Positions 31,182-55,979 of a DNA stretch of 64,000 bases are shown here, one piece after another. Origin of the DNA: Candidatus Eiseniibacteriota bacterium (GTDB taxonomy: Bacteria > Eisenbacteria > RBG-16-71-46); the NCBI GenBank assembly GCA_031370785.1, contig JANMQY010000063.1, forward strand, positions 1 through 64,000, given 5' to 3'. The notes below the pieces were generated by a model. That model saw only the letters and a list, made by a program, of their open reading frames with translations. It ran no database searches and was not told the origin of the DNA. The translations under genes were made by a program, and so were the position numbers. Within the stretch, counting starts at the first letter, position 1; every line of letters begins with the position of its first letter.

Positions 31182-31196
31182 CGGCACGAGGAGAAC

Positions 31197-32408: not shown

Positions 32409-32623
32409 CCCCGGCCCGGAACGCAAACCCGGGGAATTTCCTCTAGTATCCGGCCTGACAACTCCGTAATATATCGCTCGTGGCCGCTCGGTCCCCCGAG
32501 TCGAGCGGTATCTTTTTTTTCTGTCGTGAAGCTCGAACGTCACGACTGCGCCGCCAGAGTCCCCAGGTTGTCACGCTTCAGCACGTGGTTTCTCTCACGT
32601 AGCCCCTTGTCCGGAGGTCCCAG

Positions 32624-35497: not shown

Positions 35498-35510
35498 GAT
35501 CAGCTCACGC

Positions 35511-35555
35511 AAAAGACGGACGGCCGGCGCTTCACGCGTCGGCCGTCCGTCTTTT
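35511..35555 (+). terminator. Intrinsic terminator (probably bidirectional)
   Basis: AAAAGACGGACGGCCGGCGC-TTCAC-GCGTCGGCCGTCCGTCTTTT directly after the stop codon. Confidence 0.85.
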
Positions 35556-35577
35556 CAGGCGTTCGGGGGCCCTTCGC

Positions 35578-35606
35578 TTGACCCTGCGCGGGGCATTCGA
35601 TAGCTT
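35578..35606 (+). promoter_or_regulatory. Putative sigma70 promoter of the gcv operon
   Basis: TTGACC-17 bp-TAGCTT, 30 bp upstream of gcvT. Confidence 0.55.
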
Positions 35607-35635
35607 CGATCCGTTTTGCCACCCAGGAGCCGACT

Positions 35636-36742
35636 GTGCAGCGCACCAGCGCCCCGATTCGAACTCCGTTCTACGACTTCCACGTCGCCGCCGGCGGCCG
35701 GCTGATCGACTTTGCCGGCTTCGAGATGCCCGTGCGCTATACTGGCGACGTGCGCGAGCACCTGTGCGTGCGCAAGGCCGCCGGGCTGTTCGACATCTCG
35801 CACATGGGGGAGTTCCGGGTCAGCGGGCAGGGCGCGGCTGAGTTCCTGCACCGGATGGTGACCAACGACGTGCTGGGCCTCGAGGTCGCTCAGGCGGTCT
35901 ATTCGCCGTTGTGCCGCCCGGACGGCGGCATCGTCGACGACCTGCTGGTCTATCGCGCGGCGGATCACCACATGGTGGTGGTCAACGCCTCGAACATCGC
36001 CAAGGATTTCGCGTGGTTGAAGGAGCACTGCCCGGCGGGGGTCACGCTCGCGGATCGTTCCGAGGAGACCGTGTTGCTGGCGGTGCAGGGACCCAAGGCC
36101 GCCGCGGTGCTGCGCGGACACGTGCCGGAGCCGGCGCTCGATCTCGGCTACTACCGCTTTCTCGAAGGAAAGCTGTTCGGCGTCCCGGCGCTGATCTCGC
36201 GCACCGGCTACACCGGGGAAGACGGCTTCGAGCTGTACTTCCATCCGCGGGACGCGGCCGCGGTATGGGAGGGACTCATGGTCGCGGGCCGGCCGCACGG
36301 CCTGGAGCCGGTGGGCTTGGGCGCGCGCGACACGCTGCGACTCGAGATGGGTTACATGCTCTACGGGAACGACATCACCGACACGACTTCACCGCTCGAA
36401 GCCGGCCTCGGCTGGACGGTCAAGCTCAAGAAGGACGATTTCGTGGGCAAGCAGGCGCTGGTGCAGCAGAAGACCGATGGGCTGAGCCGCAAGCTCGTCG
36501 GATTCCGGCTCGAAGGGCGACGCGTGCCGCGGCACGACATGCCCATCGAATCGGACGGCCGGATCGTGGGAGTGGTGACCAGCGGCACGTTCAGCCCGAG
36601 TCTCGAGGTACCGATCGGGATGGGCTACGTGGAATCCCGGTTTTCCGCGCTGGAAACGCCGCTCGCGATCCGGGCCGGCGAAACACTTCTTCCGGCGCGC
36701 GTCGTGGCGCGCCCGTTCTACACCCAGGGCTCACGCCTCTGA
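35636..36742 (+). CDS. gcvT: Glycine cleavage aminomethyltransferase (T protein)
   Basis: GLFDISHMG, SRTGYTGEDGFE and GLGARDTLRLE. Confidence 0.96.
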   Translation: MQRTSAPIRTPFYDFHVAAGGRLIDFAGFEMPVRYTGDVREHLCVRKAAGLFDISHMGEFRVSGQGAAEFLHRMVTNDVLGLEVAQAVYSPLCRPDGGIVDDLLVYRAADHHMVVVNASNIAKDFAWLKEHCPAGVTLADRSEETVLLAVQGPKAAAVLRGHVPEPALDLGYYRFLEGKLFGVPALISRTGYTGEDGFELYFHPRDAAAVWEGLMVAGRPHGLEPVGLGARDTLRLEMGYMLYGNDITDTTSPLEAGLGWTVKLKKDDFVGKQALVQQKTDGLSRKLVGFRLEGRRVPRHDMPIESDGRIVGVVTSGTFSPSLEVPIGMGYVESRFSALETPLAIRAGETLLPARVVARPFYTQGSRL

Positions 36743-36866
36743 ACACTCGCGGCACTCTGGCGACACGCAACTCGACTTTCGCAGTCCGAGCCGGCGGCCA
36801 GGCGGCCCTCCGGATCGTACGCATCGACCGTTCGCATTTGGCGGCGGTTTTTTTCAGGAGGATCCG

Positions 36867-37256
36867 TTGGCTTACCCCGAAGACGTGCGGTACACCGCCG
36901 AGCACGAGTGGGCGCGCCTCGAGTCGGGGGTGGTCCGGGTGGGAATCACCGGCTACGCCACCGAGCAGCTCGGTGACGTCGTGTTCGTGGAGCTTCCCGA
37001 GGTGGGCAAGAAGCTCGAAGCGAAGAAGCCGTTCGGCGTGGTCGAGGCGGTCAAGACCGTGAGCGACCTGTACGCGCCGGTCTCGGGCGAAGTCATCGAG
37101 GTCAACGGTGCGCTCGCCGACAATCCGGCGCTGGTCAACCAGGAACCGTACGGTGACGGCTGGATGATCCGCATCCGCCCGAACAATCCCGCAGAGATCG
37201 AGAAGCTGCTCAATCACGTCGACTACGAGAAGCTCATCGAGGAGCAGCACGCATGA
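36867..37256 (+). CDS. gcvH: Glycine cleavage H protein
   Basis: YTAEHEW, LGDVVFVELP, VEAVKTVSD (lipoyl Lys) and PYGDGW. AGGAGG RBS with TTG start. Confidence 0.96.
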   Translation: MAYPEDVRYTAEHEWARLESGVVRVGITGYATEQLGDVVFVELPEVGKKLEAKKPFGVVEAVKTVSDLYAPVSGEVIEVNGALADNPALVNQEPYGDGWMIRIRPNNPAEIEKLLNHVDYEKLIEEQHA

Positions 37257-38599
37257 GCTTCGTCGGTCTGACCGCTGAAGAAGAAAAGCGCATGCTCGGC
37301 GACATCGGCGTCGCCGCATTCGACGAGTTGCTCGAGGCGGTCCCGGCCAGGGCGCGGCTCGCGCGCGCGCTGGCGATTCCAGGGCCTCTCTCCGAGATCG
37401 AGCTGCGTCGCAAGCTTGGCGGCTGGGCCGGGCAGAACCTGGCCGCGCACGCGGTCTCCTTCATGGGCGGCGGCGCCTACGATCAGTTCGTGCCGGCCGC
37501 GGTGAATGCGATCGCGATGCGTTCCGAGTTCGCGACCGCCTACACGCCGTATCAGCCCGAGGTCGCGCAGGGCACGCTGACCGTGATCTTCGAATTCCAG
37601 AGCATGATCGCGGAGCTCACGGGCATGGAGGTCGCGAACGCCTCGCTCTATGACGGCGCGACTGCCGTGGTCGAGGGCGTGCTGCTGGCCCGCACCCAGA
37701 CCGGTCGAGCGCGCGTAGTCGTGGCCGGTGCACTTCATCCACACTATCTCGAAGTGCTGCAGACCTATCTCGACGGGCACGACCTGACCGTGATCCCCGA
37801 CCGTTCTGGCGTGTGCGCGCCCGAAGACCTGCGCGCGGCGCTCGGCCCGGACGTGGCCGCGGTGGTGTACCAGCATCCCAACTTCTTCGGGCTGCTCGAG
37901 AGTCCCTCTGCCCTCCATGCGATGGCGCACGAAGCCGGCGCGCTGGCGGTCGCATGCTGCGATCCGATCGCGCTCGCGCTGCTCGAGCCGCCGGGCGCCT
38001 CGGGGGCGGACATCGTGGTCGGAGAGGGCCAGCCGCTCGGAAACTATCCGAGCTTTGGCGGGCCGGCGCTCGGGTTTTTCGCCTGCCGCTCCTCCCTGGT
38101 GCGGCGCATGCCCGGACGCCTCGCGGCCGAGACCGTCGACAGGGATGGAAAGCGCGGCTTCGTGCTCACGCTCCAGACCCGCGAGCAGCACATCCGGCGC
38201 GAACGGGCGACCTCGAACATCTGCACCAACCAGGGCCTGCTCGCGCTGCGCGCCACCGTCTACATGGGACTGATGGGGCGCGAAGGCATGCGCGAGGTCG
38301 CGACGCTGTGTGTGCAGAAGTCGCACTGGGCCGCCGAGCTGGCGGTGGCGGTGCCGGGTTACCGCCTCGCTTGGCCCGGCGCGTTCTTCCGCGAGTTCGT
38401 GCTCGAGTGCCCGGTGCCGGCCACAGACGTGATCCGCGCCGGACGCGACCAGGGCCTCATGGCGGGCGTGGATCTCGGGCGCTTCCGCCCGGAGTGGAAT
38501 CGCCTGCTGCTGGTTGCGGTGACCGAGCAGCGCAGCCGCGAGGAGATCGAGCGCTGGGCCGAAGCCCTGCACGCCGCGGGCGGAGGGAAGAAGCGATGA
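37253..38599 (+). CDS. gcvPA: Glycine dehydrogenase (decarboxylating) subunit 1
   Basis: TAYTPYQPE, NASLYDG and REQHIRRERATSNICTNQ. Confidence 0.95.
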   Translation: MSFVGLTAEEEKRMLGDIGVAAFDELLEAVPARARLARALAIPGPLSEIELRRKLGGWAGQNLAAHAVSFMGGGAYDQFVPAAVNAIAMRSEFATAYTPYQPEVAQGTLTVIFEFQSMIAELTGMEVANASLYDGATAVVEGVLLARTQTGRARVVVAGALHPHYLEVLQTYLDGHDLTVIPDRSGVCAPEDLRAALGPDVAAVVYQHPNFFGLLESPSALHAMAHEAGALAVACCDPIALALLEPPGASGADIVVGEGQPLGNYPSFGGPALGFFACRSSLVRRMPGRLAAETVDRDGKRGFVLTLQTREQHIRRERATSNICTNQGLLALRATVYMGLMGREGMREVATLCVQKSHWAAELAVAVPGYRLAWPGAFFREFVLECPVPATDVIRAGRDQGLMAGVDLGRFRPEWNRLLLVAVTEQRSREEIERWAEALHAAGGGKKR

Positions 38600-40098
38600 A
38601 CCTCGAGCGCCGTCTGCTGATCGAGCAGGGTGGGCCGGGCCATCGCGGTCCCTCGCTTCCCAGGTGCGACGTTCCGGAGCGGCCGCTGGCCGAACTCATG
38701 CCGGGCGTCCGGCTGCGCGCGACGCTCGCGTTCCCGCAGGTCACCGAGCCCGAGGTGGTGCGCCACTTCATCGAGCTGAGCACGCTCAATCATCACATCG
38801 ACCGCGGGTTCTATCCGCTCGGCTCGTGCACCATGAAGCACAATCCGAAGATCAACGACGAGATCGCGCTCCTTGCCGGATTCGCGCTCGACCATCCGCT
38901 GGGGCTAGATGAGGACTGCCAGGGATCGTTGCGGGTGCTGCGCGAGCTGCAGAACGTGCTCGCCGAGATCACCGGCTTCGCCGCGGTCACGACCCAGCCC
39001 GCCGCCGGCGCGCAGGGCGAGATGACTGGCCTGCTCCTGATCCGCGCTTATCACCGCTCGCGCAGCGAAGGCGAGAAGCGCCGGCGCGTGATCGTGCCGG
39101 ACTCGGCGCACGGCACCAATCCCGCGAGCGTGCATCTGGTCGGCTACGAGATCGTGACCATCCCCTCCGAGGAGCACGCCACCGTCAACCTCGACGCGCT
39201 GCGGGCCGCTCTCGACGACCGGACCGCTGCGGTGATGCTGACCGTGCCGAACACGCTCGGCCTGTTCGAGCCGCACATCCTCGAGGTGACCCGCATGGCG
39301 CACGAGGCCGGAGCGCAGGTCTACCTGGACGGCGCCAATCTCAACGCGCTGATCGGGTTGGTGCGACCGGGAGATCTCGGGTTCGACGTGATGCACATCA
39401 ACGTGCACAAGACCTTCTCGACCCCCCACGGCGGTGGCGGTCCCGGCGCCGGCCCGGTCGCGGTCGCAAAGCATCTCGAGCCGTTCCTGCCGCTGCCGGT
39501 GGTGGTGGAAGAGGGCGGTGTGCTCAGGCTGTCGTCCGATCGGCCACAGAGCGTCGGGCGGATCCATTCGTTCCACGGCAACTTCGGGATCCTGGTTCGC
39601 GCGCTGACCTACATCCTCGGGCTTGGGCCCGAGGGACTCCGTCAGGTGAGCCGGACCGCGATCCTCAACGCGAACTGGCTCATGTGCAGACTCGCAAAAG
39701 TGTACGAGCTGCCGCACCCCGAGCACTGCATGCACGAGTTCGTGCTGAGCGGCCGCAACCTGCGCAAGTACGGGGTCAAGACCCTGGATGTGGCGAAGCG
39801 GCTGCTCGATTTCGGCGTGCATGCGCCGACCGTCTACTTCCCGCTGATCGTCGAAGAGGCGATGATGATCGAGCCGACCGAGACCGAGACCCTGGATCGG
39901 CTGTTGCACTTCGCGGAGGCAATGGAGCGCATCGCCGAAGAGGCGCGCACCAATCCCCAGATCCTCCACGATGCGCCGCTGACCACACCGGTGCGGCGGC
40001 TCGACGAAGGCCGCGCCGCGCGGGAGCTCAAGCTGCGCTGGAACGCGGAACCGGCGAGGCGCGAAGCGCGGGCGCAGGAACCCGCGGCCCGCGGATGA
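38596..40098 (+). CDS. gcvPB: Glycine dehydrogenase (decarboxylating) subunit 2
   Basis: YPLGSCTMK, SAHGTNPAS, HKTFSTPHGGGGPG and IEPTETE. Confidence 0.95.
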   Translation: MNLERRLLIEQGGPGHRGPSLPRCDVPERPLAELMPGVRLRATLAFPQVTEPEVVRHFIELSTLNHHIDRGFYPLGSCTMKHNPKINDEIALLAGFALDHPLGLDEDCQGSLRVLRELQNVLAEITGFAAVTTQPAAGAQGEMTGLLLIRAYHRSRSEGEKRRRVIVPDSAHGTNPASVHLVGYEIVTIPSEEHATVNLDALRAALDDRTAAVMLTVPNTLGLFEPHILEVTRMAHEAGAQVYLDGANLNALIGLVRPGDLGFDVMHINVHKTFSTPHGGGGPGAGPVAVAKHLEPFLPLPVVVEEGGVLRLSSDRPQSVGRIHSFHGNFGILVRALTYILGLGPEGLRQVSRTAILNANWLMCRLAKVYELPHPEHCMHEFVLSGRNLRKYGVKTLDVAKRLLDFGVHAPTVYFPLIVEEAMMIEPTETETLDRLLHFAEAMERIAEEARTNPQILHDAPLTTPVRRLDEGRAARELKLRWNAEPARREARAQEPAARG

Positions 40099-40577
40099 GC
40101 GTTGCCATGGAGCAGCAGCCCCGCGCCGAGAACGCGGCGCCAGAACCGGTCGCGAACGAGTCCGCGGCTCCGCTCGAGTGGAGCTACAACCCGTGGCACG
40201 AACGTGGCGGGCGCTCCGCGGTTGCCGCGATCGCACTGCTCGCGATCTGCCTCGCGCTGACCAGCCTCCACGAGAGCGCGGTGCTGACCCTGGGACTGTG
40301 CCTCGCGGCTGCTGGAGCGCTCGCGCCGCTGCTCACTCCGAATCGCTGCCGGATCGATCAGTCCGGCATCGCGTGCCGGGGCGCGCTGGGCTGGGAGCGA
40401 AGGCGCTGGAGTGAGCTGCGCCGCGCATCGGTGACCGCGGGGGGCGTGCTGTGCTCACCCTACGCCGCCGCGCACTGGCTGGATTCGCAGCGCGCCATGT
40501 TCCTGCCACTGCCGCGCACGCTGCGGGCCGCGCTGCTCTCCGAGATCCGCCCGAGGCTGGCCCGGCATGGCCTCTGA
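40095..40577 (+). CDS. Hypothetical membrane protein (2 TM plus small PH-like beta domain)
   Basis: ATGA overlap with gcvPB, two hydrophobic helices and codon usage like the flanking genes. Confidence 0.6.
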   Translation: MSVAMEQQPRAENAAPEPVANESAAPLEWSYNPWHERGGRSAVAAIALLAICLALTSLHESAVLTLGLCLAAAGALAPLLTPNRCRIDQSGIACRGALGWERRRWSELRRASVTAGGVLCSPYAAAHWLDSQRAMFLPLPRTLRAALLSEIRPRLARHGL

Positions 40578-40890
40578 GCCCGCGACCATCCGCGACGAAG
40601 ATCGGGTTCTGATCGAGCGCGTCGCGCGCCGCATCGTCGAGCTCCACATGGAGGTGCCGGCGATCCTCACCCTCGAGAGCGGAAAGCCGCTGTCGCTGCT
40701 CGCGAGCCAGATCCTGGTTTTCCTCGAGCCGATCGTGCTCGCGCTGCTGCCGATCGGAGACTACCGCCGCTTCGCGTTGCTCATCGAGCACCGCGACGTG
40801 GTCGAGGCGCTCATCCTGTCCATTGAAGCCGGAGCCGAGGCGAGGCGCGCCGTGAAGCGCGCCGAGGCCGCGGCGCGGCGCGCACCCTAG
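40567..40890 (+). CDS. Hypothetical protein
   Basis: Overlaps the upstream gene. PAILTLESGKPLS..SQ.L.FLEP segment. Confidence 0.65.
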   Translation: MASEPATIRDEDRVLIERVARRIVELHMEVPAILTLESGKPLSLLASQILVFLEPIVLALLPIGDYRRFALLIEHRDVVEALILSIEAGAEARRAVKRAEAAARRAP

Positions 40891-40915
40891 CAACAGGCCG
40901 AAGCGTTCGAGGAAC

Positions 40916-42751
40916 ATGGAGATCCTGCCCGAAAACATCCAATCCATCCTGGCCACGGACTGTGGGTCCACCACGACCAAGGCCATCCTGATCGAAAAGC
41001 GTGGCGACAGCTATCGGCTGATCGTGCGCGGCGAAGCCCCGACCACCGTCGAAGCTCCGTTCGAGGACGTGACCCGCGGCGTGCTGAACGCGGTGCGTGA
41101 GGTCGAGGAGCTGGCCGGCCGCAAGATCCTCGAAGGCGAGCGCATCATCTCCCCGCAGAAGGGCAGCGAGGGCGTGGATCTGTACGTCAGCACCTCGAGC
41201 GCCGGAGGTGGCCTGCAGATGATGGTCTCCGGGCTGGTCCTCCAGATGACTGGCGAGAGCGCGCAGCGCGCCGCACTCGGGGCCGGCGCGATCGTGATGG
41301 ACGTGATCGCGCTCAATGACGGGCGTCGCGCGCACGAGAAGATCCGCCGCCTGCGCCAGCTGCGCCCCGACATGATCCTGCTCTCGGGCGGCACCGACGG
41401 CGGAGACATCAAGCGCGTCGCCGAGATGGCTGAGATCCTGGTGGCCGCCGATCCCAAGGCGCGGCTCGGGACCGGCTACGAACTGCCGGTGATCTACGCC
41501 GGCAACAAGGATGCGGCCCAGATCGTGCGCGACCTGCTCGAGAAGCGCACCGCCCTGTCGGTCGTTCCGAACCTGCGACCCTCGCTCGAGCGCGAAAACC
41601 TGGGCCCGGCACGGGACGCCATCCACGAGCTGTTCATGGAGCACGTGATGGCCCACGCTCCCGGCTACAAGAAGCTCATGACCTGGTCGCCGGTTCCGAT
41701 CATGCCGACTCCGGGCGCGGTCGGGCTCATCATCGAGAAGATCTCGAAGCGCGACGACATCGCGGTGGTGGGGGTGGATATCGGCGGCGCGACCACCGAC
41801 GTGTTCTCGGTGTTCCGCGAGAGGGTCAAGGACAAGCTCGAGGACAAGTTCAACCGCACCGTGTCCGCCAACCTTGGAATGAGTTACTCGGTCTCGAACG
41901 TCATGGCCGAGGCCGGTATCGAGAACATCCTGCGCTGGGTGCCGTTCGAGGTGGACGAGGTCGAGCTGCGCAATCGGATCAAGAATAAGATGATCCGGCC
42001 TACCACCATCCCGCAGACCCTGGAAGACCTGGTGATCGAGCAGGCCATCGCGCGCGAGGCGCTGCGCCTCGCGTTCGATCAGCACAAGGCGCTCGCGGTC
42101 GGGCTCAAGGGCATCCAGACCGCCCGCGACATCTCCGACATCGTGAGTCAGACGCAGAGCGGCTCGACGCTGGTCAACCTGCTCGATCTGGGGCTGCTGG
42201 TCGGCTCGGGCGGCGTGCTGTCGCACGCGCCGCGCCGGGTGCAGAGCGCGCTCATGATGATCGACGCGTTCCTGCCCGAGGGGTTCACCAATCTCGCGGT
42301 CGACAGCATCTTCATGGCCCCTCAGCTCGGCGTGCTCTCGACCGTGCACGAGAAGGCGGCGACCGAGGTGTTCGAGCGCGATTGCCTGATCCGGCTCGGC
42401 GGGGTGGTGGCGCCGATCGGCTCCGCCCGGTCCGGCCAGCCGTGCCTGAGCGTCGAGCTGAGCATGCCGGGCCAGCCGGATGTGAGCCGGAAGATCCCGT
42501 TCGGCGAGCTGGTGCTGCTGCCGTTGCCGGCCGAGGGTGTTGGAAAGCTCACCGCGGTTCCCGAGCGCGCCTTCGACCTCGGCCCGGGGAAGGGACGAGC
42601 ACTCAGCGTCGAGCTGCACGGCGGCGTGGTGGGCCTGATCGTGGACACGCGCGGGCGGCGGCCGTTCACACTGCCGGCACAGCATGCCGAGCGCATCCAG
42701 CGCCTGCGCGCCTGGAACGCGGCGCTCGGGATGTATCCCAGGGAGGTGTGA
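40916..42751 (+). CDS. GlmL/MutL (glutamate mutase L)-like ASKHA-fold ATPase
   Basis: ATDCGSTTTKA (phosphate 1), TSSAGGGL, LSGGTDGG, GVDIGGATTDVFS (phosphate 2) and GSGGVLSHAP (adenosine). Confidence 0.82.
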   Translation: MEILPENIQSILATDCGSTTTKAILIEKRGDSYRLIVRGEAPTTVEAPFEDVTRGVLNAVREVEELAGRKILEGERIISPQKGSEGVDLYVSTSSAGGGLQMMVSGLVLQMTGESAQRAALGAGAIVMDVIALNDGRRAHEKIRRLRQLRPDMILLSGGTDGGDIKRVAEMAEILVAADPKARLGTGYELPVIYAGNKDAAQIVRDLLEKRTALSVVPNLRPSLERENLGPARDAIHELFMEHVMAHAPGYKKLMTWSPVPIMPTPGAVGLIIEKISKRDDIAVVGVDIGGATTDVFSVFRERVKDKLEDKFNRTVSANLGMSYSVSNVMAEAGIENILRWVPFEVDEVELRNRIKNKMIRPTTIPQTLEDLVIEQAIAREALRLAFDQHKALAVGLKGIQTARDISDIVSQTQSGSTLVNLLDLGLLVGSGGVLSHAPRRVQSALMMIDAFLPEGFTNLAVDSIFMAPQLGVLSTVHEKAATEVFERDCLIRLGGVVAPIGSARSGQPCLSVELSMPGQPDVSRKIPFGELVLLPLPAEGVGKLTAVPERAFDLGPGKGRALSVELHGGVVGLIVDTRGRRPFTLPAQHAERIQRLRAWNAALGMYPREV

Positions 42752-42752
42752 G

Positions 42753-43880
42753 ATGGCCCACTCCTATACGCCCGGGCTGCGTGTCACCGACTCCGCGACG
42801 CTGACGCGCGAGCGGCGCCTGCCGCTCAAGGGCGCGGTGCTGGTGGGCGTGGGCGAGCAGGTCACTTCGGAGCAGGTGGTCGCGCGCTGCGAGCTGCCGG
42901 GCAACGTGCAGACCCTGAACCTCGCCTCGCGCCTCTCGGTCGATCCCGCGAACGTCGGCAGCACGCTGCGCGTTCCGATCGGGAGCGCGGTGAAGAAGGG
43001 CGACGTGCTCGCCGCAGCGAAAAGCCTTTTCGGGCTCGTCACCAACACGGTCACCGCCCCGACCGACGGTGTGCTCGAAAGCATCTCGAGCATCACCGGC
43101 CAGCTGATCCTGCGCGAGCCGCCGATTCCGGTCGAGGTGAACGCGTTCGTGGACGGAACGGTGCGCGAAGTGATCCCGGACGAGGGCGTGGTGGTCGAGA
43201 CCCGGGCCGCATTCCTGCAGGGCATCTTCGGAATCGGTGGAGAAACCTGGGGCGAGATCGTGGTCGCGGTGAGCGGACCCGATCAGGATCTCGAGGTCGC
43301 GGACCTCAAGAGCGAGCATCGCGGCAAGGTGGTGGTCGGTGGCGCATACGTCTCGTACGCGGCACTGACACGCGCGCGCGAGCTTGGCGTGGCCGCTGTC
43401 GTGGTCGGCGGATTCGACGACCGCGACCTGCGCCAGCTGCTGGGCCGCGATCTGGGAGTTGCGATCACGGGCTCGGAGGAGCTCGGAATCACGCTGGTCC
43501 TGAGCGAGGGCTTCGGCCGCATCCGCATGGCCGAACGCAGCTGGAAGCTGCTCACGCGCTACGCCGGGCACGCGGCGTCGGTGAGCGGGGCCACGCAGAT
43601 TCGCGCCGGCGTGATGCGCCCCGAGATCCTGATCGCTCACGACCGGGCCGAGTCCGCGAGCGCGGGCGCGGGTGGCGCGGAGCGCGGGCTCGAGATTGGC
43701 TCGCTGCTGCGGGTGATCCGTGAGCCGCACTTCGGGCGGATCGGAAACGTGGTCGAGCTCCCGAGCGATCTCAAGGAGCTGGAGAGCGAGGCGAAGGTGC
43801 GCGTACTCGTGGTCGAGTTCGTTGACGATCACACCCGCGTGACGGTGCCGCGCGCCAACGTGGAGCTCATCGCCAGCTGA
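42753..43880 (+). CDS. Hypothetical protein with barrel-sandwich-hybrid (lipoyl-like) motifs and KOW-like C-terminus
   Basis: GGAGGTG RBS. VPIGSAVKKGDVLA...APTDGVL and GSLLRVIREPHFGRIG...VPRANVELI. Confidence 0.72.
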   Translation: MAHSYTPGLRVTDSATLTRERRLPLKGAVLVGVGEQVTSEQVVARCELPGNVQTLNLASRLSVDPANVGSTLRVPIGSAVKKGDVLAAAKSLFGLVTNTVTAPTDGVLESISSITGQLILREPPIPVEVNAFVDGTVREVIPDEGVVVETRAAFLQGIFGIGGETWGEIVVAVSGPDQDLEVADLKSEHRGKVVVGGAYVSYAALTRARELGVAAVVVGGFDDRDLRQLLGRDLGVAITGSEELGITLVLSEGFGRIRMAERSWKLLTRYAGHAASVSGATQIRAGVMRPEILIAHDRAESASAGAGGAERGLEIGSLLRVIREPHFGRIGNVVELPSDLKELESEAKVRVLVVEFVDDHTRVTVPRANVELIAS

Positions 43881-43937
43881 GTGCCGGGGCAACGGGTTGC
43901 GTTCGCCGGGCCGAGGCTCGCGCTTGCGGCAATTCCA

Positions 43938-43966
43938 TTGACAGGCCATGCGGGCCACTCTAGGTT
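43938..43966 (+). promoter_or_regulatory. Putative sigma70 promoter of the four-gene membrane module
   Basis: TTGACA-17 bp-TAGGTT. Confidence 0.6.
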
Positions 43967-44041
43967 CGACGCGGTCGTACGCATTGGGAAGCCGCGGCCA
44001 GGCAGTTTCGGCCGCACGGAGAGACATCGACGGGGGGTCCG

Positions 44042-45244
44042 TTGGCACGATTCGCGGCGCGTCGTTCCGCCATTGGCGCCACTGTTTTCGCCGCCGCGTT
44101 GCTGATGTCCATGTTGCACTCCCCGTGCGGCGCTCAGGGCACGACCCCGCCCTCCGGCGGCATGCCCGCCCCGGCACCGGCTTCGGGCCTCACCTGGACC
44201 GATGTCGTAAACGACGCCGGCCGCGCGGTGACGCTGACCTGGAAGCTCTCGCCCGACGACGACGGGCGCCGCGTCCTCTACTACTACATCGAGCGCTCGA
44301 ACTCGCCGGCCGGACCCTGGACCGTCGTGGATTCCACGATCGCCGGAGTCAACACCCGGACCGACCAGAAGGTGCGCCGCAACACCGACTATTTCTACCG
44401 GATCACGACCGTCGGGCCCGGTGGAAAAACGCCGGCCCTCAGCGTGACCGGTCCGGTGCGCGCGACCTCGCAGTGGATCAACCAGACGCGCTGGAGCGTG
44501 CTGGTATTCATGGTGATGTTCTTCGGCTTCGTCCTCTACTTCATCGCGAGCGCGCAGGCCGGGCGCAAGCCGTTCGTCCGCCGCATCCCCGGCATCGATG
44601 CGATCGAAGAGGCGATCGGGCGCGCCACCGAGATGGGGCGCTCGGTGCTGTTCATCCCCGGGGTCCAGGACATCGACGACATCCAGACCGTCGCCGGCCT
44701 CGTGATCCTCGAGAGCGTGGCCAAGATCACCGCGCGCTACGAGACTCCGCTCACGGTCCCGGTCGCCTACCCGATTCCGTTCACGATCGCCGAGGAGATG
44801 GTCAAGAGCGGCTATCTCCATGCCGGCAAGCCCGACCGCTACGACCCGAACAGCGTGCGCTTCGTCTCCCCGGAGCAGTTCGCGTACGTGGCCGCGATCA
44901 CCGGCATCATGGTCCGCGACAGGCCGGCCGCGCACATCTTCATGGGCTCCTTCTACGCCGAGTCGCTGATGCTCGCCGAGACCGGCTTCTCGACCGGGGC
45001 GATCCAGGTGGCGGGCACCGCCAACGTGCATCAGCTTCCGTTCTTCGTGGTGGCCTGCGACTACACCCTGCTCGGCGAAGAGCTGTATGCAGCGAGCGCG
45101 TACCTCTCCGGCGAGGCCAAGCTGGTCGGCAGCCTCAAGGGCGCCGATCTCCTCAAGATCGTCGTGATCGTGACCGTGATCGTCGGCTGCATTCTCGAGA
45201 CCATGAATCTTCATGGTCTCACCGAGTGGATGAAGACGCAGTGA
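44042..45244 (+). CDS. Fibronectin type III plus DUF6754-like membrane protein
   Basis: Signal peptide, FN3 (VTLTWKLSPDD...YFYRI), TM, VRRIPGIDAIEEAIGRATEMG, GEELYAASAYL and C-terminal TM. Confidence 0.75.
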   Translation: MARFAARRSAIGATVFAAALLMSMLHSPCGAQGTTPPSGGMPAPAPASGLTWTDVVNDAGRAVTLTWKLSPDDDGRRVLYYYIERSNSPAGPWTVVDSTIAGVNTRTDQKVRRNTDYFYRITTVGPGGKTPALSVTGPVRATSQWINQTRWSVLVFMVMFFGFVLYFIASAQAGRKPFVRRIPGIDAIEEAIGRATEMGRSVLFIPGVQDIDDIQTVAGLVILESVAKITARYETPLTVPVAYPIPFTIAEEMVKSGYLHAGKPDRYDPNSVRFVSPEQFAYVAAITGIMVRDRPAAHIFMGSFYAESLMLAETGFSTGAIQVAGTANVHQLPFFVVACDYTLLGEELYAASAYLSGEAKLVGSLKGADLLKIVVIVTVIVGCILETMNLHGLTEWMKTQ

Positions 45245-45257
45245 TGGGGGACAAGGC

Positions 45258-45908
45258 ATGAAGCGCGAAATCCCGCTGTTCATCACCGCGGCGATCGGCC
45301 TGTACATGATCCTGTCGTTCTTCGTGCCGCACCAGTTCGTGAGCGTGCCGGCTGACTTCCTCCAGCAATGCGCGATCATCCTCGTGGCCTTCGGCTACGT
45401 GCTCGGCGGGGCCAACGCGCTACGCGTCAACTTCGACACGATCTACAAGCGCCAGAGCGGCTGGCCGTACAAGGCGGTGCTGGTCGCCGGCCTGCTGACC
45501 ACGCTCATCATCGGGCTGGCCGACGGGCGGAACTGGCAGGACGAAACCACGCGCTCGATGTGGATCTACAACCGGCTCTACTCGCCGATGCAGGCCACCA
45601 TGTTCGCGCTGCTGGCGTTCTTCATCGCCTCGGCCGCGTTCCGCGCGTTCCGCATCCGCACCGTGGAAGCCGGTCTGCTGGCGGTGGCGGCGCTCATCGT
45701 CATGCTCGGTCGGGTTCCGGTCGGGAACTGGGCGACCGGTTTCCTGCCGCACTGGGCCCAGCTCGGCACCGTCCAGGAGTGGATCATGAACTTCCCACAG
45801 AACGCTGCGAAGCGCGCGATCCTGATCGGCGCCGCGCTCGGCGTGATGGCGACAGGCCTGCGCGTGATCCTCGGGATCGAGCGCTCCTACCTGAGCGGGG
45901 AGGACTAG
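45258..45908 (+). CDS. Uncharacterised polytopic membrane protein (~6 TM)
   Basis: ATMFALLAFFIASAAFRAFR and AAKRAILIGAALG. Confidence 0.75.
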   Translation: MKREIPLFITAAIGLYMILSFFVPHQFVSVPADFLQQCAIILVAFGYVLGGANALRVNFDTIYKRQSGWPYKAVLVAGLLTTLIIGLADGRNWQDETTRSMWIYNRLYSPMQATMFALLAFFIASAAFRAFRIRTVEAGLLAVAALIVMLGRVPVGNWATGFLPHWAQLGTVQEWIMNFPQNAAKRAILIGAALGVMATGLRVILGIERSYLSGED

Positions 45909-45911
45909 ACC

Positions 45912-46757
45912 GTGGGTCTCGAATCGATCGAGAAACTCGACCGTCGCTGGCTTTTCCTGCTGATGGGCCTGCTCGTGCTCGGGCCGCTGATCGCGCCGAT
46001 CGGTCTCCCGCTCACCGTCTCGGTTCCGGTGCAGGGTTTCTTCGATACGGTGGCGAAGGTCCCGGATGGAAGCACCGTGCTGATGTCGTGTGACTACGAT
46101 CCGGCCTCGCGTCCCGAGCTGGTACCGATGACCAAGACCGCCATGCACCAGCTGATGGACAAGAACTGCAAGGTCGTGGTGACCGTGCTGTGGCCTGGCG
46201 GACCCGGAATCGTCGATCAGACCCTGCGCGAGGTGATGCGCGAGTCCTATCCGGCCAAGAAGTACGGGGTGGACTGGGTGAATCTCGGATACAAGGCAGG
46301 CAACGAGGCGGTGATGGTGGTGATGGGGCAGGGGATCGCGAACGCGTTCCCGGAGGACTACACCAGCCAGTCCACGACCGACTACACCAAGCTCCCGATC
46401 ATGCGCGGCGTGCGGGACTATTCCAGCTTCCCGCTGCTGGTGAACATTTCGGCGGGCTACCCGGGAACCAAGGAATGGGTGCAGCAGGTGCAGTCGCGTT
46501 TCCATCTGCCGATGGTCTCGGGCTGCACCGCGGTGAGCGCGCCCGAGTACTACCCGTATCTGCAGTCCGGACAGCTGCAGGGATTGCTCGGCGGCATGGC
46601 GGGCGCGGCGGAGTACGAGAAGGCATACGGCCACGGCTTGAAGGGCGCGGCGACCAAGGGCATGGACGCGCAGTCGCTGGCGCACGTGTTCGTCGCGATC
46701 TGCATCCTGCTCGGCAACGTGGTGCAGATCACGCGTCGCCCGGGAGGTGCGGCGTGA
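45912..46757 (+). CDS. Uncharacterised membrane-anchored alpha/beta protein
   Basis: N- and C-terminal TM helices. YGVDWVNLGYKAG and GLLGGMAGAAEYE. Confidence 0.75.
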   Translation: MGLESIEKLDRRWLFLLMGLLVLGPLIAPIGLPLTVSVPVQGFFDTVAKVPDGSTVLMSCDYDPASRPELVPMTKTAMHQLMDKNCKVVVTVLWPGGPGIVDQTLREVMRESYPAKKYGVDWVNLGYKAGNEAVMVVMGQGIANAFPEDYTSQSTTDYTKLPIMRGVRDYSSFPLLVNISAGYPGTKEWVQQVQSRFHLPMVSGCTAVSAPEYYPYLQSGQLQGLLGGMAGAAEYEKAYGHGLKGAATKGMDAQSLAHVFVAICILLGNVVQITRRPGGAA

Positions 46758-47410
46758 GCCACGACTTCGGCCTCTGGATCGCAGCGTTGCTCACGCTGTG
46801 CATCTTCTCGTTTCTGTACAAGGACAATCCGTTCTACAAATTTGCGGAGCATCTGTTCGTCGGTGTGTCCGCCGGCTACTACATCGTGCTCAATTTCTGG
46901 ACCGTGATCATGACCAACCTGTGGGATCCGCTGGTCAAGGCGTTCAGCAATCCGGGTACGTTCTCGCCCCAGCAGGGCGACTACCGCGCTCTGCTGCTGA
47001 TCCCGGGCATCCTCGGCTTGCTGCTGTTCACGCGGCTCTTCGGCAAGATCGGCTGGATGTCGCGCTGGGCGCTGGCGGTCATCATTGGCGTCTACGCCGG
47101 GCTCAAGACCACCGGGTTTGCGCAGAGCGATCTGGTCGCGCAGGTGCAGGCCAGCCTTCAGCCGTTGTGGACGGGGAGCCTCGGCCAGAGCATCAGCGTG
47201 ATCCTGTTCACGATCGGGCTGATCTGCTCGCTGCTGTTCTTCTTCTTCAGCCGCGAGCACAAGGGCGCGCTGGGCGTGGCCTCGAAGATCGGCGTCTACT
47301 TCCTCATGATTTCCTTCGGCGCGGGCTACGGCTACACCGTGATGTCGCGCGTGTCGCTGCTCATCGGCCGATTCCAGTTTCTGCTCGAGGACTGGCTTGG
47401 CTTCAAATAG
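46754..47410 (+). CDS. Uncharacterised polytopic membrane protein (~6 TM)
   Basis: GTGA overlap. FSFLYKDNPFYKFAEHLFVGVSAGY and FLMISFGAGYGYTVMSR. Confidence 0.75.
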   Translation: MSHDFGLWIAALLTLCIFSFLYKDNPFYKFAEHLFVGVSAGYYIVLNFWTVIMTNLWDPLVKAFSNPGTFSPQQGDYRALLLIPGILGLLLFTRLFGKIGWMSRWALAVIIGVYAGLKTTGFAQSDLVAQVQASLQPLWTGSLGQSISVILFTIGLICSLLFFFFSREHKGALGVASKIGVYFLMISFGAGYGYTVMSRVSLLIGRFQFLLEDWLGFK

Positions 47411-48365: not shown

Positions 48366-50183
48366 ATGCATCGACGCAGGTTGCCCGCGTTGAGCACTCC
48401 ACTGATCGCAGTCGCCCTTCTGCTGGTCGCCTCGTGCACACCCGGGGCGAACCGGACCGCGAAGAGGCAGTTCCCGCCGCTGCCGCCCGACACACTGACC
48501 CTTCCCACCGCGCAGATCGGTACCTATGGCGGACGCTTCACGATCGCGCAGACCAGCAGCCCGCGTACCTACAACGCGCTGCTCGCCACCGAGCAGTCCT
48601 CGCGCGAGGTCACGAACCTGTTGTTCGCGGCGCTTGCCAATCTCGACTACGCGACCATGCGCGACTACGGCGAGCTGGCGAAATCGTGGGAGTCGAGCGC
48701 CGACGGCCGGGTCTGGACCTGGCACCTGCGCCGGGGCGCGCGCTTCTCCGACGGCCATCCGATCACCTCGGAAGACGTGCTGTTCTCGTTCGAGATCGTC
48801 TACGACGACTCGCTGCATCCATCCACCCAGGACCTGATCAAGCTCGAAGGCCGCAAGTTCGAGATCACCGCTCCGGATTCGTACACGGTGGTGATGAAGA
48901 TCCCCAGGCCCTACCCGTTGATGGTCGATGCCGTGGGCGCGGTGCGCATCATGCCGAAGCACGTGCTCGAGCGCGCGTACCGCCGTGGCACGTTCGCCTC
49001 GGCCTACGGCATCGACACGCGTCCCGAGAGTCTGGTCACGAGCGGTCCATGGAAGCTGAAGGAGTTCCGGCAGGGCGAGAAAACCGTCATCGAGCCCAAC
49101 CCGTGGTGGATCGGTGTCGACGCGCGTGGCCAGCGGCTGCCGTACCTGAACGAAGTCGTGTTCGTCATTGTTCCCGACCAGAACACGGCCGCGCTCAAGT
49201 TCCAGGCCGGCGACGTGGATGGGATCGACAACGTGAAGCCGGAGGACTACTCCACGTATGCCGATTCGGCCCGCTCGCGCGCGCAGCACTACACCCTCCA
49301 TGATGTCGGCACTTCCCTCACCTCCTCGTTCTTCTGGTTCAACCTCAATCGGGTCTCGCATCCGACTGCCGGGCAGAAGGTCGGGGATCCGAGCGTCGGC
49401 GCGGCCAAGTACGCGTGGTTCAGCAATCCCGTTTTCCGTCGCGCCGTCTCGAAGGCGATCGACCGGGATGCAATCATCCGCGGTCCCTACTTCGGAAACG
49501 CGGTGAAGAACTGGTCTCCGCTCACGCCGGGAAGCGTGCAATGGCATGTGCCCGGATTGACCGGCGACGACTACGATCCCGAAGGCTCGAAGCGTCTGCT
49601 GGCGAGCCTGGGCCTGCGCGATCGGGATCACGACGGTGTGCTCGAGGACGCGCGCGGCAACGCCGTGAGCTTCACCCTGAAGACCAACAGCGACAACAAC
49701 GTCCGGGTCGCGATGTGCAACTTCATTCGCGACGACCTGGCGCGGGTCGGAGTCCGCGTGACGCCGGTGCCGGTCGAGATGAATGCGCTCATGACCAACA
49801 CCCGGGAGGACTTTCAATACGATGCGGCGCTCACCGGGCTCGGAAGCGCGGTGCCGTGCGACCCGGGGATGTACCAGAATTTCTTCCGCTCGAGCGGCGT
49901 GCTCCATTACTGGCACATCCGTCAGACGACTCCGGAGACGGCCGTCGAACGTGACCTCGACCACCTGATGGACGCGATCAGCATGACCCGCGATTCGGTC
50001 GAGCGCCACGCGATCTGGGTGAAGATGCAGCGCCGCCTCAACGACGCCTGCTTCGTGGTCTGGCTGCCTTCGCAGATCATGAAGCTCCCGGTCCGCGAGG
50101 GGTTCGGCAACGTGCAGCCGATGCTCCTCCCGCATCGCCTGCTGTGGAATATCGACCGCGTGTTCGTGAAGCCGCGCGGCTGA
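48366..50183 (+). CDS. Oligopeptide ABC transporter substrate-binding lipoprotein (SBP family 5)
   Basis: LVASC lipobox, LAKSWESSADG..W..HLR.G..FSDG.PIT..DV.FS and FRRAVSKAIDR. Confidence 0.92.
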   Translation: MHRRRLPALSTPLIAVALLLVASCTPGANRTAKRQFPPLPPDTLTLPTAQIGTYGGRFTIAQTSSPRTYNALLATEQSSREVTNLLFAALANLDYATMRDYGELAKSWESSADGRVWTWHLRRGARFSDGHPITSEDVLFSFEIVYDDSLHPSTQDLIKLEGRKFEITAPDSYTVVMKIPRPYPLMVDAVGAVRIMPKHVLERAYRRGTFASAYGIDTRPESLVTSGPWKLKEFRQGEKTVIEPNPWWIGVDARGQRLPYLNEVVFVIVPDQNTAALKFQAGDVDGIDNVKPEDYSTYADSARSRAQHYTLHDVGTSLTSSFFWFNLNRVSHPTAGQKVGDPSVGAAKYAWFSNPVFRRAVSKAIDRDAIIRGPYFGNAVKNWSPLTPGSVQWHVPGLTGDDYDPEGSKRLLASLGLRDRDHDGVLEDARGNAVSFTLKTNSDNNVRVAMCNFIRDDLARVGVRVTPVPVEMNALMTNTREDFQYDAALTGLGSAVPCDPGMYQNFFRSSGVLHYWHIRQTTPETAVERDLDHLMDAISMTRDSVERHAIWVKMQRRLNDACFVVWLPSQIMKLPVREGFGNVQPMLLPHRLLWNIDRVFVKPRG

Positions 50184-50199
50184 CGGGCCAGGCCGCCCG

Positions 50200-51168
50200 T
50201 TGCGCACCTACGTCCTCAGGCGCCTGCTCCAGACCCTGCCGCTCCTGCTCGGCGTTTCGGCGCTGACCTTTCTGCTGCTGCAGCTGGCGCCCGGCGACTT
50301 CCTCAACACGCTGGCGGAGAATCCCTCGATCTCGGCCGAGACGCTCGATGCGATGCGGCACCGCTTCGGACTGGATCGTCCCTGGACCGTGCAGTATGTG
50401 CTGTACCTGAAGAACCTGATGCTCCACTTCGACCTGGGCGAATCGTTCTCGCATCACCAGCCCGTGGTGGCGGTCCTGCGCCCCGCGCTGGGAAACACTC
50501 TGCTGCTCGCGATCGCAGCAGCGCTCGTGACCTGGGGGCTGGCGATCCCGCTCGGAGTCTGGGCGGCGGCACGTCCACGCGGTTTCGTCGACCGGACGCT
50601 CTCTTTGCTAGCGTTCGTATGGCTGTCGGTGCCCGAGGTGCTTTCGGGCCTGCTGCTGCTGCTGCTTGCGGCGCGCACCGGCTGGTTCCCGATCGGCGGC
50701 ATGCGCTCGCTGGACTGGGACACGCTTTCGCTCGGCGGGAAGATCCTCGACCTGCTGCGCCACCTGGCGCTGCCCGCGCTCGTGGTCGGGCTGGTGCCGC
50801 TCGCCTCGCGCCTGCGCCAGATGCGCGGCAATCTGCTCGACGTGCTTCATCAGGACTACATCACGACCGCCCGCGCCAAGGGGCTGGGGGAGCGGCAGGT
50901 TCTGTTCAAGCACGCGCTGCGCAATGCGCTCAATCCGATGATCACGCTGTTCGGGTTCACGCTGGGCGCGCTGGTCTCGGGCTCGTTCGTGGCCGAAGTG
51001 ATCTTCTCCTGGCCGGGGCTCGGGCGCGTCACCCTGGATGCGATCCTGGCGCGCGATCCTTACCTCGTGATGGGCGCGGTGCTCATGGCCTCGCTGGTGC
51101 TGGTCGCCGGCAACCTGATCGCCGACCTGCTGCTCGCGGTGGCAGACCCGCGGATCGCGCATGCCTGA
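50200..51168 (+). CDS. Peptide ABC transporter permease (OppB/DppB-like)
   Basis: LAPGD, DYITTARAKGL and EVIFSWPGLG. Confidence 0.92.
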   Translation: MRTYVLRRLLQTLPLLLGVSALTFLLLQLAPGDFLNTLAENPSISAETLDAMRHRFGLDRPWTVQYVLYLKNLMLHFDLGESFSHHQPVVAVLRPALGNTLLLAIAAALVTWGLAIPLGVWAAARPRGFVDRTLSLLAFVWLSVPEVLSGLLLLLLAARTGWFPIGGMRSLDWDTLSLGGKILDLLRHLALPALVVGLVPLASRLRQMRGNLLDVLHQDYITTARAKGLGERQVLFKHALRNALNPMITLFGFTLGALVSGSFVAEVIFSWPGLGRVTLDAILARDPYLVMGAVLMASLVLVAGNLIADLLLAVADPRIAHA

Positions 51169-52249
51169 TCACGTCCGCCTCGCATCCCCGGCGCGGCGTA
51201 CCTGGCGGGAGCTGCGCCGCAGCCGACCCGCGATCGCCGCCGCGCTGGTGCTGGCGCTGCTCTACATCGCCGCGGCCGGCGCCCCGTTCCTCGCGCCATA
51301 CGCCGAAGACCGGATGGATCGGACACGCTTCTACCACCCGCCGCAGCGCATCCACTGGGTGGACGCCGCGGGTCGCTGGCACGCGCGACCGTTCGTGTAC
51401 GCGACCCGTCCGCTGGACTCGGCGGCGCTCAGCTATCGCGAGGAGCGCGCAAAGGCGCTGCCGCTGCGCTTCTTCGTGCGCGGCGGTCGCTACCGCCTGC
51501 TGGGCCTCGTGCCGAGCAACCGGCATCTTTACGGAGTCGCAGGCGCGAACCAGAGTGTGTTCCTGCTCGGCGCCGACGGCTATGGCCGCGACGAGCTGAC
51601 CCGCCTGCTGTTCGGCGCGCAGGTCTCCCTGACCGTCGGGCTGGTGGGGATTGCGATCTCGTTCACGCTCGGGTTGGCTCTCGGCGGGATCTCCGGCTAT
51701 TACGGAGGATGGGTCGATGCGCTGCTCATGCGCGGGAGCGAATTGCTGCTGAGCATCCCGGGGCTCTACCTGATCGTCGCGCTGCGCACGGTGTTTCCGG
51801 CCGAGATGCCGAGTCGCCGGGTGTATCTGATGATCATCGCGATCCTCGCGCTGATCGGCTGGGCGAGCCTCGCGCGCGTGATCCGCGGCATGGTGCTCTC
51901 CATCCGGCGCGCGGATTTCGTGCTCGCGGCCGAGGCGCTCGGGGTTCCGCGCTGGCGCATCGTCGTGTGGCACATCCTGCCGAATACGATGTCGTTCGTG
52001 ATCGTTGCGGCCACGGTCGCGGTGCCGGGGTATATTCTCGCCGAGGTGTTCCTGTCGTTTCTCGGTGTGGGCGTGCAGGAGCCGAGCGCCTCGTGGGGCA
52101 ACATGTTGAACCAGGCGAGGAGCTTGAGGGTGCTGCACTCGTTCCCGTGGCTGCTGTACGCGCCCGGGGCAGCGATCTTCGTGACCGTGATGGCGTTCAA
52201 TCTGCTCGGCGACGGGCTGCGCGACGCGTTCGATCCGCGCCGCGCCTAG
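51161..52249 (+). CDS. Peptide ABC transporter permease (OppC/DppC-like)
   Basis: [23 protein letters not shown] and [15 protein letters not shown]. Confidence 0.92.
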
Positions 52250-52267
52250 AGGAGGACGGACAACCCG

Positions 52268-53282
<1,015 letters not shown>

Positions 53283-53290
<8 letters not shown>

Positions 53291-54290
53291 TGTCCTGCTC
53301 GAGGTCCGCGATCTGAAGAAGCACTTCCCGATCCGGCGCGGACTGTTCGGGCGCACGGCGGGGCAGGTGAAGGCGGTCGACGGCGTTTCGTTCTCGGTCG
53401 GCGCCGGGGAGGTGCTGGGGCTGGTGGGCGAGAGCGGCTGCGGCAAGACCACCACTGGACGCTGCATCCTGCGCCTGATCGAGCCGACTTCCGGCAGCGT
53501 GAGGTTCGAAGGCCGCGAGGTGACGACGCTTCCCGCGCGCGAGCTGCGCGCGCTGCGGCGCGAAATGCAGATCGTGTTCCAGGATCCCTACTCGAGCCTG
53601 AACCCGCGTCTCACCGTGGGTAGCATGCTGACCGAGGCGCTCACCATCCACCGCCTCGCCCGTGGCGCCGCGGCGCGCGCGCGCGTCGCGGAACTGCTCA
53701 CACTGGTCGGGCTTTCGCCGGACCACGCGCGACGCTATCCGCACGAATTCTCGGGCGGTCAACGCCAGCGCATCGGCGTGGCTCGCGCGCTGGCGGTGCG
53801 GCCCAGGCTGATCGTGGCCGACGAGCCGGTCTCCGCGCTCGACGTCTCGATCCAGGCGCAGATCATCAACTTGCTGCGCGATCTCCAGAAGCGCCTCGGG
53901 CTGACCTATCTTTTCGTCGCCCACGATCTCTCGGTGGTCGAGCACATCAGCGACCGGGTTGCGGTCATGTACCTGGGCCGGATCGTCGAGCTGGCCGGGA
54001 GCGCCGAGCTCTACCGCCAGCCTCTGCATCCCTACACCCAGTCGCTGCTGTCGGCGATTCCCCAGCCCAATCCGGAGCGCCGCCGCCGCCGCATGGTGCT
54101 CAAGGGCGACGTGCCGAGCCCGGCGCATCCGCCTCTGGGGTGCCACTTTCACCCGCGTTGCTTCATGGCTCAGCCGAAGTGCGCGGTCGACGAGCCGCTG
54201 CTGCGCGAAGTGCGCCCGGGCCACTGGGCGGCGTGCCATTTCGCCGAGCAGCTCATGAGTCCAGCCCAGGTCCCCGCGGGCGATCGATAG
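53283..54290 (+). CDS. Peptide ABC transporter ATP-binding protein (OppF-like)
   Basis: [21 protein letters not shown] and GCHFHPRC. Confidence 0.93.
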
Positions 54291-55298: not shown

Positions 55299-55342
55299 CG
55301 AGCCCGGCTCGCATTCAACTTTCGACGTGAGGAGCACATCCC

Positions 55343-55642: not shown

Positions 55643-55648
55643 CATCGC

Positions 55649-55954: not shown

Positions 55955-55979
55955 GGCCCTGAACCCCGGAACTCCGCTC

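Follow-up and report, generated by a model that had tools for sequence, protein, structure and literature searches.

What does an ATPase of the glutamate mutase L family do in a row of genes for membrane proteins? The question is raised by a 64,000-nucleotide stretch of DNA (hereafter the window; Candidatus Eiseniibacteriota bacterium, assembly GCA_031370785.1, contig JANMQY010000063.1, positions 1 to 64,000), in which eight genes, g1 to g8 (Table 1), were all found as open reading frames (ORFs) on the plus strand at 40095-47410. As the original prediction had described, the block lies between gcvPB (NCBIfam NF003346, over cut-off) and a gene with an LplA/LipM-type catalytic domain (lplA; PF21948, E 3e-20). 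Neighbouring genes are separated by -11 to 25 nt, the exception being a gap of 161 nt between g4 and g5. Only g3 (PF13941) and g5 (PF20539, DUF6754) reach a Pfam cut-off, each of the eight genes is single-copy in a genome that is 100% complete by markers, and most relatives of the window proteins belong to genomes with the name Candidatus Eisenbacteria. The genes form a two-part system, with a soluble part (g3 and g4, together with g2) and a membrane cassette (g5-g8). This system is very probably an ATPase-coupled membrane complex, and the reading that we favour, with a probability of roughly 0.45, is an ATP-driven, non-ABC transport machine of two separable modules. As far as literature searches reach (subscription journals lie mostly outside them and supplements are not covered), it is undescribed: nothing was found on DUF6754, and at the level of titles nothing on PF13941 and related names concerned this system.

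The arrangement of the block is not due to chance, because g4-g8 all recur downstream of g3 in 33 of the 58 related loci that offered 5.5 kb of downstream DNA. Among 111 genomes of the window's phylum, PF13941 and the g4 profile matched the same 100, and DUF6754 matched 101 (three of these matches being contig-edge or weak fragments); 100 genomes hold all three, 10 hold none and one (G083) holds DUF6754 only. Similar figures were obtained for 61 genomes of the WOR-3 group (ATPase 56, g4 57, DUF6754 58), where 56 genomes have all three, three have none, one lacks only the ATPase match and one has DUF6754 only. These genomes are kin rather than independent samples, and p-values were given no weight. 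Across both surveys, two of 159 DUF6754-positive genomes carry neither g3 nor g4. Of the 150 best representatives, 43 carry g3 and g4 as a single polypeptide, and so do all 11 second-copy loci, one of which is frameshifted. The system was cleanly lost in G024, G055 and G057, where gcvH abuts lplA, and only the front of g5 remains in G045. This remnant (L236:6296-6844) consists of the g5 signal peptide and FN3 part and lies between gcvH and lplA. Overall, co-occurrence, fusions and joint loss support a conserved system that is independent of a mutase and links the ATPase to the membrane genes.

The two parts are also separable. The order g5-g6-g7-g8 was kept in 18 of 18 fetched DUF6754 loci, and some cassettes in a further set of loci were tandem or truncated. 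Many genomes hold several cassettes per ATPase, the extreme being G056 with seven verified cassettes and two ATPase modules (one split, one fused), and the g7 copies among diverged cassettes are 32-44% identical to the window's g7. In distant metagenome loci the genes run g2-g5-g6-g7-g8-g3-g4 (L155, L214 and L219) or g3-g4...g5-g8-g2 (L210 and L211), and by their features we tentatively take the former type to be Chloroflexota-like and the latter archaeal. A putative promoter pattern was detected in 33 of 37 g4-g5 spacers, compared with 0.3% of shuffles, although a stricter consensus scan missed the one at 43938-43966 in the window. A promoter of its own before g5 would suit a cassette capable of moving and being copied independently. 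RNA data gave no evidence of expression, as two runs with a small word share led to long contigs of flat depth that possibly derive from DNA. No DUF6754 match was found in plasmids.

The ATPase itself matches PF13941 over residues 11-490 (E 5e-127). It retains all three actin/ASKHA nucleotide motifs, as predicted, and their residues are conserved in 66 long-form relatives: D15 (98%), G17 (97%) and K22 (85%) in the first motif, D288 (95%), G290 (98%) and D295 (85%) in the second, and G432 (98%) and G433 (89%) in the third, the motif names being our assignment by presumed analogy with actin and Hsp70. Scores against the NCBIfam models were all below cut-off (GlmL NF040745, 227/475 bits; Or-4 NF040744, 212/600; TIGR01319, 169/204). 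A FastTree phylogeny of 71 sequences (66 long forms, drawn from 121 non-redundant ones, and five canonical proteins) placed the five canonical GlmL/Or-4 proteins, which have no C-terminal domain, in one clade with support 1.0; the tree is midpoint-rooted and says nothing on which form is ancestral. Accordingly, g3 is a PF13941 member but not a GlmL, and "glutamate mutase L" is a misleading label for the long form. Sequence searches against solved structures returned nothing useful for g3, g4 or g7, and with a g3-family profile the best match was an archaeal ASKHA protein at E 0.004 only. Some ATPase relatives (P0133, P0139, P0184, P0214) are fusions to exported domains with transmembrane (TM) segments or to GntR/HTH domains; one of the exported domains is M1-peptidase-like.

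For g4, the start was placed at 42753 rather than at the longer ORF start 42684, and the AlphaFold2 model (mean per-residue confidence score, pLDDT, 88.7) was divided into a barrel-sandwich hybrid (residues ~49-123), a swivelling domain (~152-299) and a KOW/SH3-like domain (~310-375). Structural matches at Z 7-9 signify likeness at fold level only. They comprise the enzyme I His-domain (Z 9.0, root-mean-square deviation (rmsd) 3.1, 108 aligned), RraA (Z 8.7-9.2) and rifampin phosphotransferase (Z 8.6) for the swivelling domain, the RnfC/NqrA N-terminus for the barrel-sandwich domain (Z 7.2-7.6), and a match at Z 8.7 for the KOW domain. The fold matches listed did not include a dehydratase reactivase, which neither supports nor rules out such a likeness. 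Invariant motifs of g4 are GVAITGxE, EGFG and GxTQIRAGVxRPE. The earlier description of g4 as lipoyl-like holds for the fold and fails for lipoylation at the usual site: the hairpin tip, where lipoyl domains carry their lysine, reads [KR]-x-L-F-G, with K in 27, R in 15 and S in three of 45 sequences at position 90. Since the swivel matches include phosphohistidine carriers (enzyme I, rifampin phosphotransferase), a kinase-coupled group translocation was considered, in which g3 would phosphorylate the g4 swivel and the phosphate would pass to g5 or to a substrate, in a relay like that of the phosphotransferase system; the conserved g5 residues C339, D340, E346 and E347 also speak for such a scheme. 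However, no acceptor histidine is conserved above 65% within residues 152-299 (H189, 29/45; H3, outside the domain, 40/45), and RraA and other non-phosphorylated domains score equally, which makes this relay very improbable.

Of the two small upstream genes, g2 accompanies g3 relatives in 75 of 80 loci, is fused once to an ATPase N-terminus (P0159) and adjoins the membrane cassette in L155, L210, L214, L219 and G083. The other, g1, is accessory: it occurs in 57 of 105 g2-holding loci, always together with g2, and among the loci around g3 relatives it was not seen in those of WOR-3. Its weak match to PF10756 (bPH_6) is below cut-off (E 0.03).

Going by family name and neighbours, the system would assist a B12 mutase, or else glycine cleavage and lipoate metabolism. 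MutL/GlmL is termed a chaperone that reactivates glutamate mutase (PMC4682846). The canonical GlmL examples do sit between glmS and glmE, g3 belongs to the same Pfam family, the gcv...lplA setting recurs in loci of Eisenbacteria, Edwardsbacteria and WOR-3, and the window's own genome has a methylmalonyl-CoA mutase. Against this, PF13941 is over cut-off in 99 of 111 phylum genomes and PF06368 (glutamate mutase E) in none, a survey that did not extend phylum-wide to lysine/ornithine aminomutase large subunits. The original prediction saw no mutase or B12-binding protein in the window. Across its own genome, glutamate mutase E had no match either; B12-binding proteins do exist outside the window, where two matches over cut-off are the methylmalonyl-CoA mutase and a methionine synthase. 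Neither of these is an aminomutase, and a third match (L005) is below cut-off. Genome G137 serves as an internal control, as a canonical 474-aa GlmL between glmS and glmE coexists there with two separate long forms, each followed by g4.

The suggested tie to glycine or amino-acid catabolism was not upheld. GcvP and GcvH are kept in 10 of 10 searched ATPase-less genomes (nine without the whole system; G097 left out), from which it follows that glycine cleavage does not need the system; g4 has no conserved lipoyl-lysine, and, as detailed below, catabolic neighbours are not enriched. The gcv...lplA setting, which closes up around the lost system as described above, is best read as inherited gene order. 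With glutamate mutase E as the mutase searched for across the phylum, a helper role for a B12 mutase or in glycine cleavage and lipoate metabolism is already largely refuted.

Turning to the membrane cassette, DUF6754 is matched by g5 with E 2e-112; the g5 start codon is uncertain, and the length is given as up to 400 aa. The exported FN3 domain that had been assigned to the membrane complex is present in g5 here and was matched in g5 relatives, but it is no general part, being absent from L155, L210, L214 and L219. Topology was predicted from lysine/arginine (K/R) bias with hand-set helix limits. It placed the DUF6754 domain of g5 inside in 32 of 33 sequences, the Rossmann-like domain of g7 outside with both ends inside in 50 of 50, the g6 N-terminus inside in 44 of 44 and the g8 N-terminus outside in 46 of 53, so that g5 and g7, and likewise g6 and g8, have opposed predicted orientations. 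This is backed by a natural g7-g8 fusion (P0311) with one additional hydrophobic segment in its linker, by two g8 relatives whose N-terminal extensions begin with an additional hydrophobic segment, by N-terminal zinc ribbons on g7 relatives, and by a g8 loop near residue 132, on the predicted outer side, that accommodates EF-hand or helix-hairpin-helix (HhH) inserts. A three-hairpin repeat in g6 and g8 was also considered and rejected, as it did not exceed reversed or block-shuffled controls.

No Pfam or NCBIfam family was found for g6, in which S125, R129, R186 and G191xxxG195 are conserved. GxxxG motifs are conserved in the helices of the cassette, as are polar residues (g6 S125 and R186; g8 E32 and R199; g5 K372; g7 H258 and N269, both in the last TM helix). 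The AlphaFold2 model of g7 (mean pLDDT 93.7) best matched the fold of MT0777 (Z 10.3, rmsd 3.2, 140 aligned), followed by generic Rossmann folds (Z 8-8.8). In a protein atlas, g7 fell only into unnamed clusters (Chloroflexota, Fidelibacterota, Zixiibacteriota) and the g5 domain had no usable match. Complex prediction for g5 (136-400) with g6, g8 and g7 was uninformative, scoring 0.77 against 0.75 in a control with g5 replaced. Four g7 relatives (L149:891-3917, L155:6660-9299, L214:3607-6579 and L219:6693-9320) combine an N-terminal zinc ribbon with a stretch of 600-700 residues made up of acidic, proline-rich repeats, in which PDWL-like motifs occur, and the ATPase P0258 ends in a similar tail.

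Opposed membrane pairs and intramembrane polar residues also speak for another reading, in which g5-g8 would work unaided as a channel or an ion-coupled secondary transporter and g3-g4 would sense ATP and gate it, comparable to the RCK rings on Ktr/Trk. The intact-looking, ATPase-less cassettes of G083 and G174 and one cassette inside a V/A-type ATPase operon (L127) are consistent with this idea. However, cassettes without the ATPase pair are rare (the two of 159 genomes mentioned above), the G083 cassette has diverged beyond its flanking genes, and the RCK fold matches concern the outer domain of g7 and are generic (Z 8.1-8.6). A gated transporter of this kind appears rather improbable.

How the ATPase might act on the membrane part is suggested by a short helix of g5, GRATEMG (residues 193-199), which follows the first TM helix on the inside. 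The motif G-R-[ASC]-T-E-x-G is present in 87 of 90 g5 relatives, and the three without the full motif belong to divergent loci that keep the E and, nearby, a G. Genome G083 (98% complete, 20 contigs) is without g1, g3 and g4 and keeps g2 and g5-g8; there the motif has become ARAAARR through in-frame substitutions at G193, T196, E197 and G199. Its cassette shows changes at 11 of 152 conserved positions, compared with 0-5 in 34 comparison loci, and is more diverged than the flanking genes, the gcv genes not being unusually diverged; all 31 conserved positions of its g7 are intact. From this pattern of conservation and loss, we regard the helix as a candidate docking site for the ATPase module.

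Taken together, these results are compatible with the following mechanism. The g3 ATPase and g4, with g2, would dock on g5 at its cytoplasmic domain, with the GRATEMG helix as the probable site, and the ASKHA open/close cycle of g3, which we infer to be driven by ATP hydrolysis, would bind and release that domain, much as the glycerol-dehydratase reactivase binds and releases its partner subunit. In the assembled complex, this docking cycle would switch a transport pathway through g6 and g8, the two six-helix proteins of predicted opposite orientation. Cargo could be captured by the outer domain of g7 together with the optional outer modules (FN3, EF-hand, HhH), and a single soluble module might serve several paralogous cassettes, as with the shared energising module of energy-coupling factor (ECF) transporters.

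Several observations weigh against this transport mechanism. No subunit has a sequence match to a known transporter family or solved structure, and we know of no precedent for an ASKHA-driven transporter. Profile comparisons of g5 with g7 and of g6 with g8 were not above shuffled controls, which leaves an inverted repeat unsupported. The genes g3 and g4 stand apart from each other and from the cassettes in many WOR-3 genomes. The G083 result comes from one genome and is partly circular, as the comparison loci also contributed to the alignments from which conserved positions were taken, and in G174, which has no g3 or g4 match, the docking motif is intact in four of four g5 copies, with an assembly gap as a possible cause. 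The neighbourhoods of the cassettes hold no substrate clue, and the long acidic, disordered g7 tails of some loci would be odd for a plain importer.

These tails (L149, L155, L214 and L219) speak for a machine for envelope remodelling, scaffolding or signalling, in which the ATPase pair would act as a reactivase-like chaperone or nucleotide switch without bulk transport. The nearest architecture is indeed that of a chaperone-like reactivase, and the EF-hand and HhH inserts of g8, ATPase fusions that involve HTH/GntR domains or an exported, M1-peptidase-like region with a TM segment, and the absence of enriched catabolic neighbours point the same way. On the other hand, up to seven verified, diverged cassettes in a genome with one or two ATPase modules suggest paralogues that each serve their own cargo, and the system is dispensable, with several losses. 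We judge such an envelope machine unlikely and, of the three mechanisms offered by the original prediction (a non-ABC transporter, kinase-coupled uptake or an envelope machine), prefer the ATP-driven transporter as the working interpretation.

Small organic nutrients as cargo are a guess. At 23 cassette loci, we compared the closest two flanking genes on either side with genes farther away, using our own classification: peptidases made up 6 of 87 adjacent and 5 of 101 distal genes (p 0.76), and peptide or amino-acid genes 12 of 87 and 11 of 101 (p 0.66). A peptidase-rich neighbourhood, convincing by eye, was thus rejected by the adjacent-versus-distal control. Individual settings are varied, with two cassettes within a sarcosine-oxidase/amino-acid-oxidase-type operon (L126), a g5-g8 cassette between the subunit C and F genes of a V/A-type ATPase operon (L127:4708-13229; one case), peptidases C26 and S58 upstream of g1 (L159) and an M20 peptidase beside g3 (L210).

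Table 1. Genes and putative promoter of the block, in window coordinates.
Feature	Position	Strand	Description
g1	40095..40577	+	160 aa; two hydrophobic segments and a PH-like domain; accessory
g2	40567..40890	+	107 aa; no known family; core member, probable adaptor
g3	40916..42751	+	611 aa; long-form GlmL/MutL-family ASKHA (actin/Hsp70-fold) ATPase with an extra C-terminal domain of ~120 aa
g4	42753..43880	+	375 aa; soluble partner; barrel-sandwich hybrid, swivelling beta/beta/alpha and KOW/SH3-like domains
Putative sigma-70-type promoter	43938..43966	+	TTGACA, 17 nt, TAGGTT; ahead of the membrane cassette
g5	44042..45244	+	<=400 aa; signal peptide, exported FN3-like domain, TM, cytoplasmic DUF6754 domain, TM
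g6	45258..45908	+	216 aa; six predicted TM helices; N-terminus inside
g7	45912..46757	+	281 aa; TM, extracytoplasmic Rossmann-like alpha/beta domain, TM
g8	46754..47410	+	218 aa; six predicted TM helices; N-terminus outside

Around the block, tdh-kbl-gcvTHPaPb form one cluster (29650-40098). Split gcvPA/PB are missing at the same spot in several relatives (among L008, L017, L020, L026, L232-L234 and L236), and the four genomes checked (G024, G045, G055 and G057) have a long single-chain GcvP frame elsewhere. An exported 957-aa protein between kbl and gcvT (32624-35497), with no Pfam match at E 0.001, is missing from the same spot in many relatives. Directly after lplA lies a complete Opp/Dpp-type ABC operon (48366-54290; SBP_bac_5, two permeases, two ATPases), which genomes without the system retain in place. 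It is followed at 55017-57407 and beyond by a bacterial microcompartment locus with EutM-like BMC-H shell genes, an aldehyde dehydrogenase (NF011927) and, judged by eye, a vertex gene of the EutN/CcmL type. DUF4388 genes, with roadblock-like genes (by eye) after them, recur shortly downstream of g8 or lplA in loci of WOR-3 and Edwardsbacteria type (L120:10365-12442 and L128:1095-3450).

If the favoured interpretation is correct, the system would be a new class of primary active transporter, with an actin/Hsp70-fold ATPase and swivel partner, in place of an ABC, P-type or rotary ATPase, as one energising module for many four-subunit cassettes, near-universal in both surveyed phyla, and "glutamate mutase L" would possibly be a minor offshoot of its ATPase family; we put this forward tentatively. 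Known primary transporters use a small set of ATPase folds, and an ASKHA-powered one would be a new way of coupling ATP to membrane work. That some nine in ten of the genomes surveyed in the two uncultured phyla carry it probably reflects a basic need missed by metabolic reconstructions, and the system is open to direct tests through its predicted docking helix, its predicted topology and the naturally fused ATPase-partner proteins.

Compared with known systems, g3 shares with GlmL/MutL and Or-4 the family PF13941, ~30% identity and the nucleotide motifs, but differs by ~120 extra C-terminal residues, its below-cut-off scores and its separate clade, and instead of an adjoining mutase it has a fixed partner, g4, and a membrane cassette. 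The alpha subunit of glycerol dehydratase reactivase is described as having ATPase, insert, linker and swivelling domains, with ATP hydrolysis freeing the partner subunit from the swivelling domain (PMC7674605). The often fused g3 and g4 would correspond to it in joining an ATPase to a domain of swivel-type fold, an analogy of architecture. There is no sequence match, the domains here stand in tandem and are joined by barrel-sandwich and KOW domains, and g3-g4 are tied to membrane proteins, with no client dehydratase seen and no beta-like subunit gene in the operon. In SCOP terms, the reactivase and g4 swivelling domains presumably belong to one fold class. In RnfA/RnfE and NqrD/NqrE, two oppositely oriented six-helix proteins of ~200 aa work with RnfC/NqrA; g6 and g8 resemble them as a pair of predicted six-helix proteins with opposed predicted orientation, and g4 in its barrel-sandwich domain. 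However, g6 and g8 lack PF02508 (no Pfam match at E 0.1) and conserved cysteines, their homology is not above controls, and no flavin or Fe-S subunits are present. ECF transporters of group II have a shared energising module for many substrate-specific membrane units, just as one soluble module here is found per several dispersed cassettes; the differences are an actin-fold ATPase, no ABC domain in the eight proteins, no EcfT or S-component match, and four genes per membrane cassette. Judged by these analogies, the system would most plausibly work like a reactivase-type ATPase wired to ECF-like membrane cassettes.

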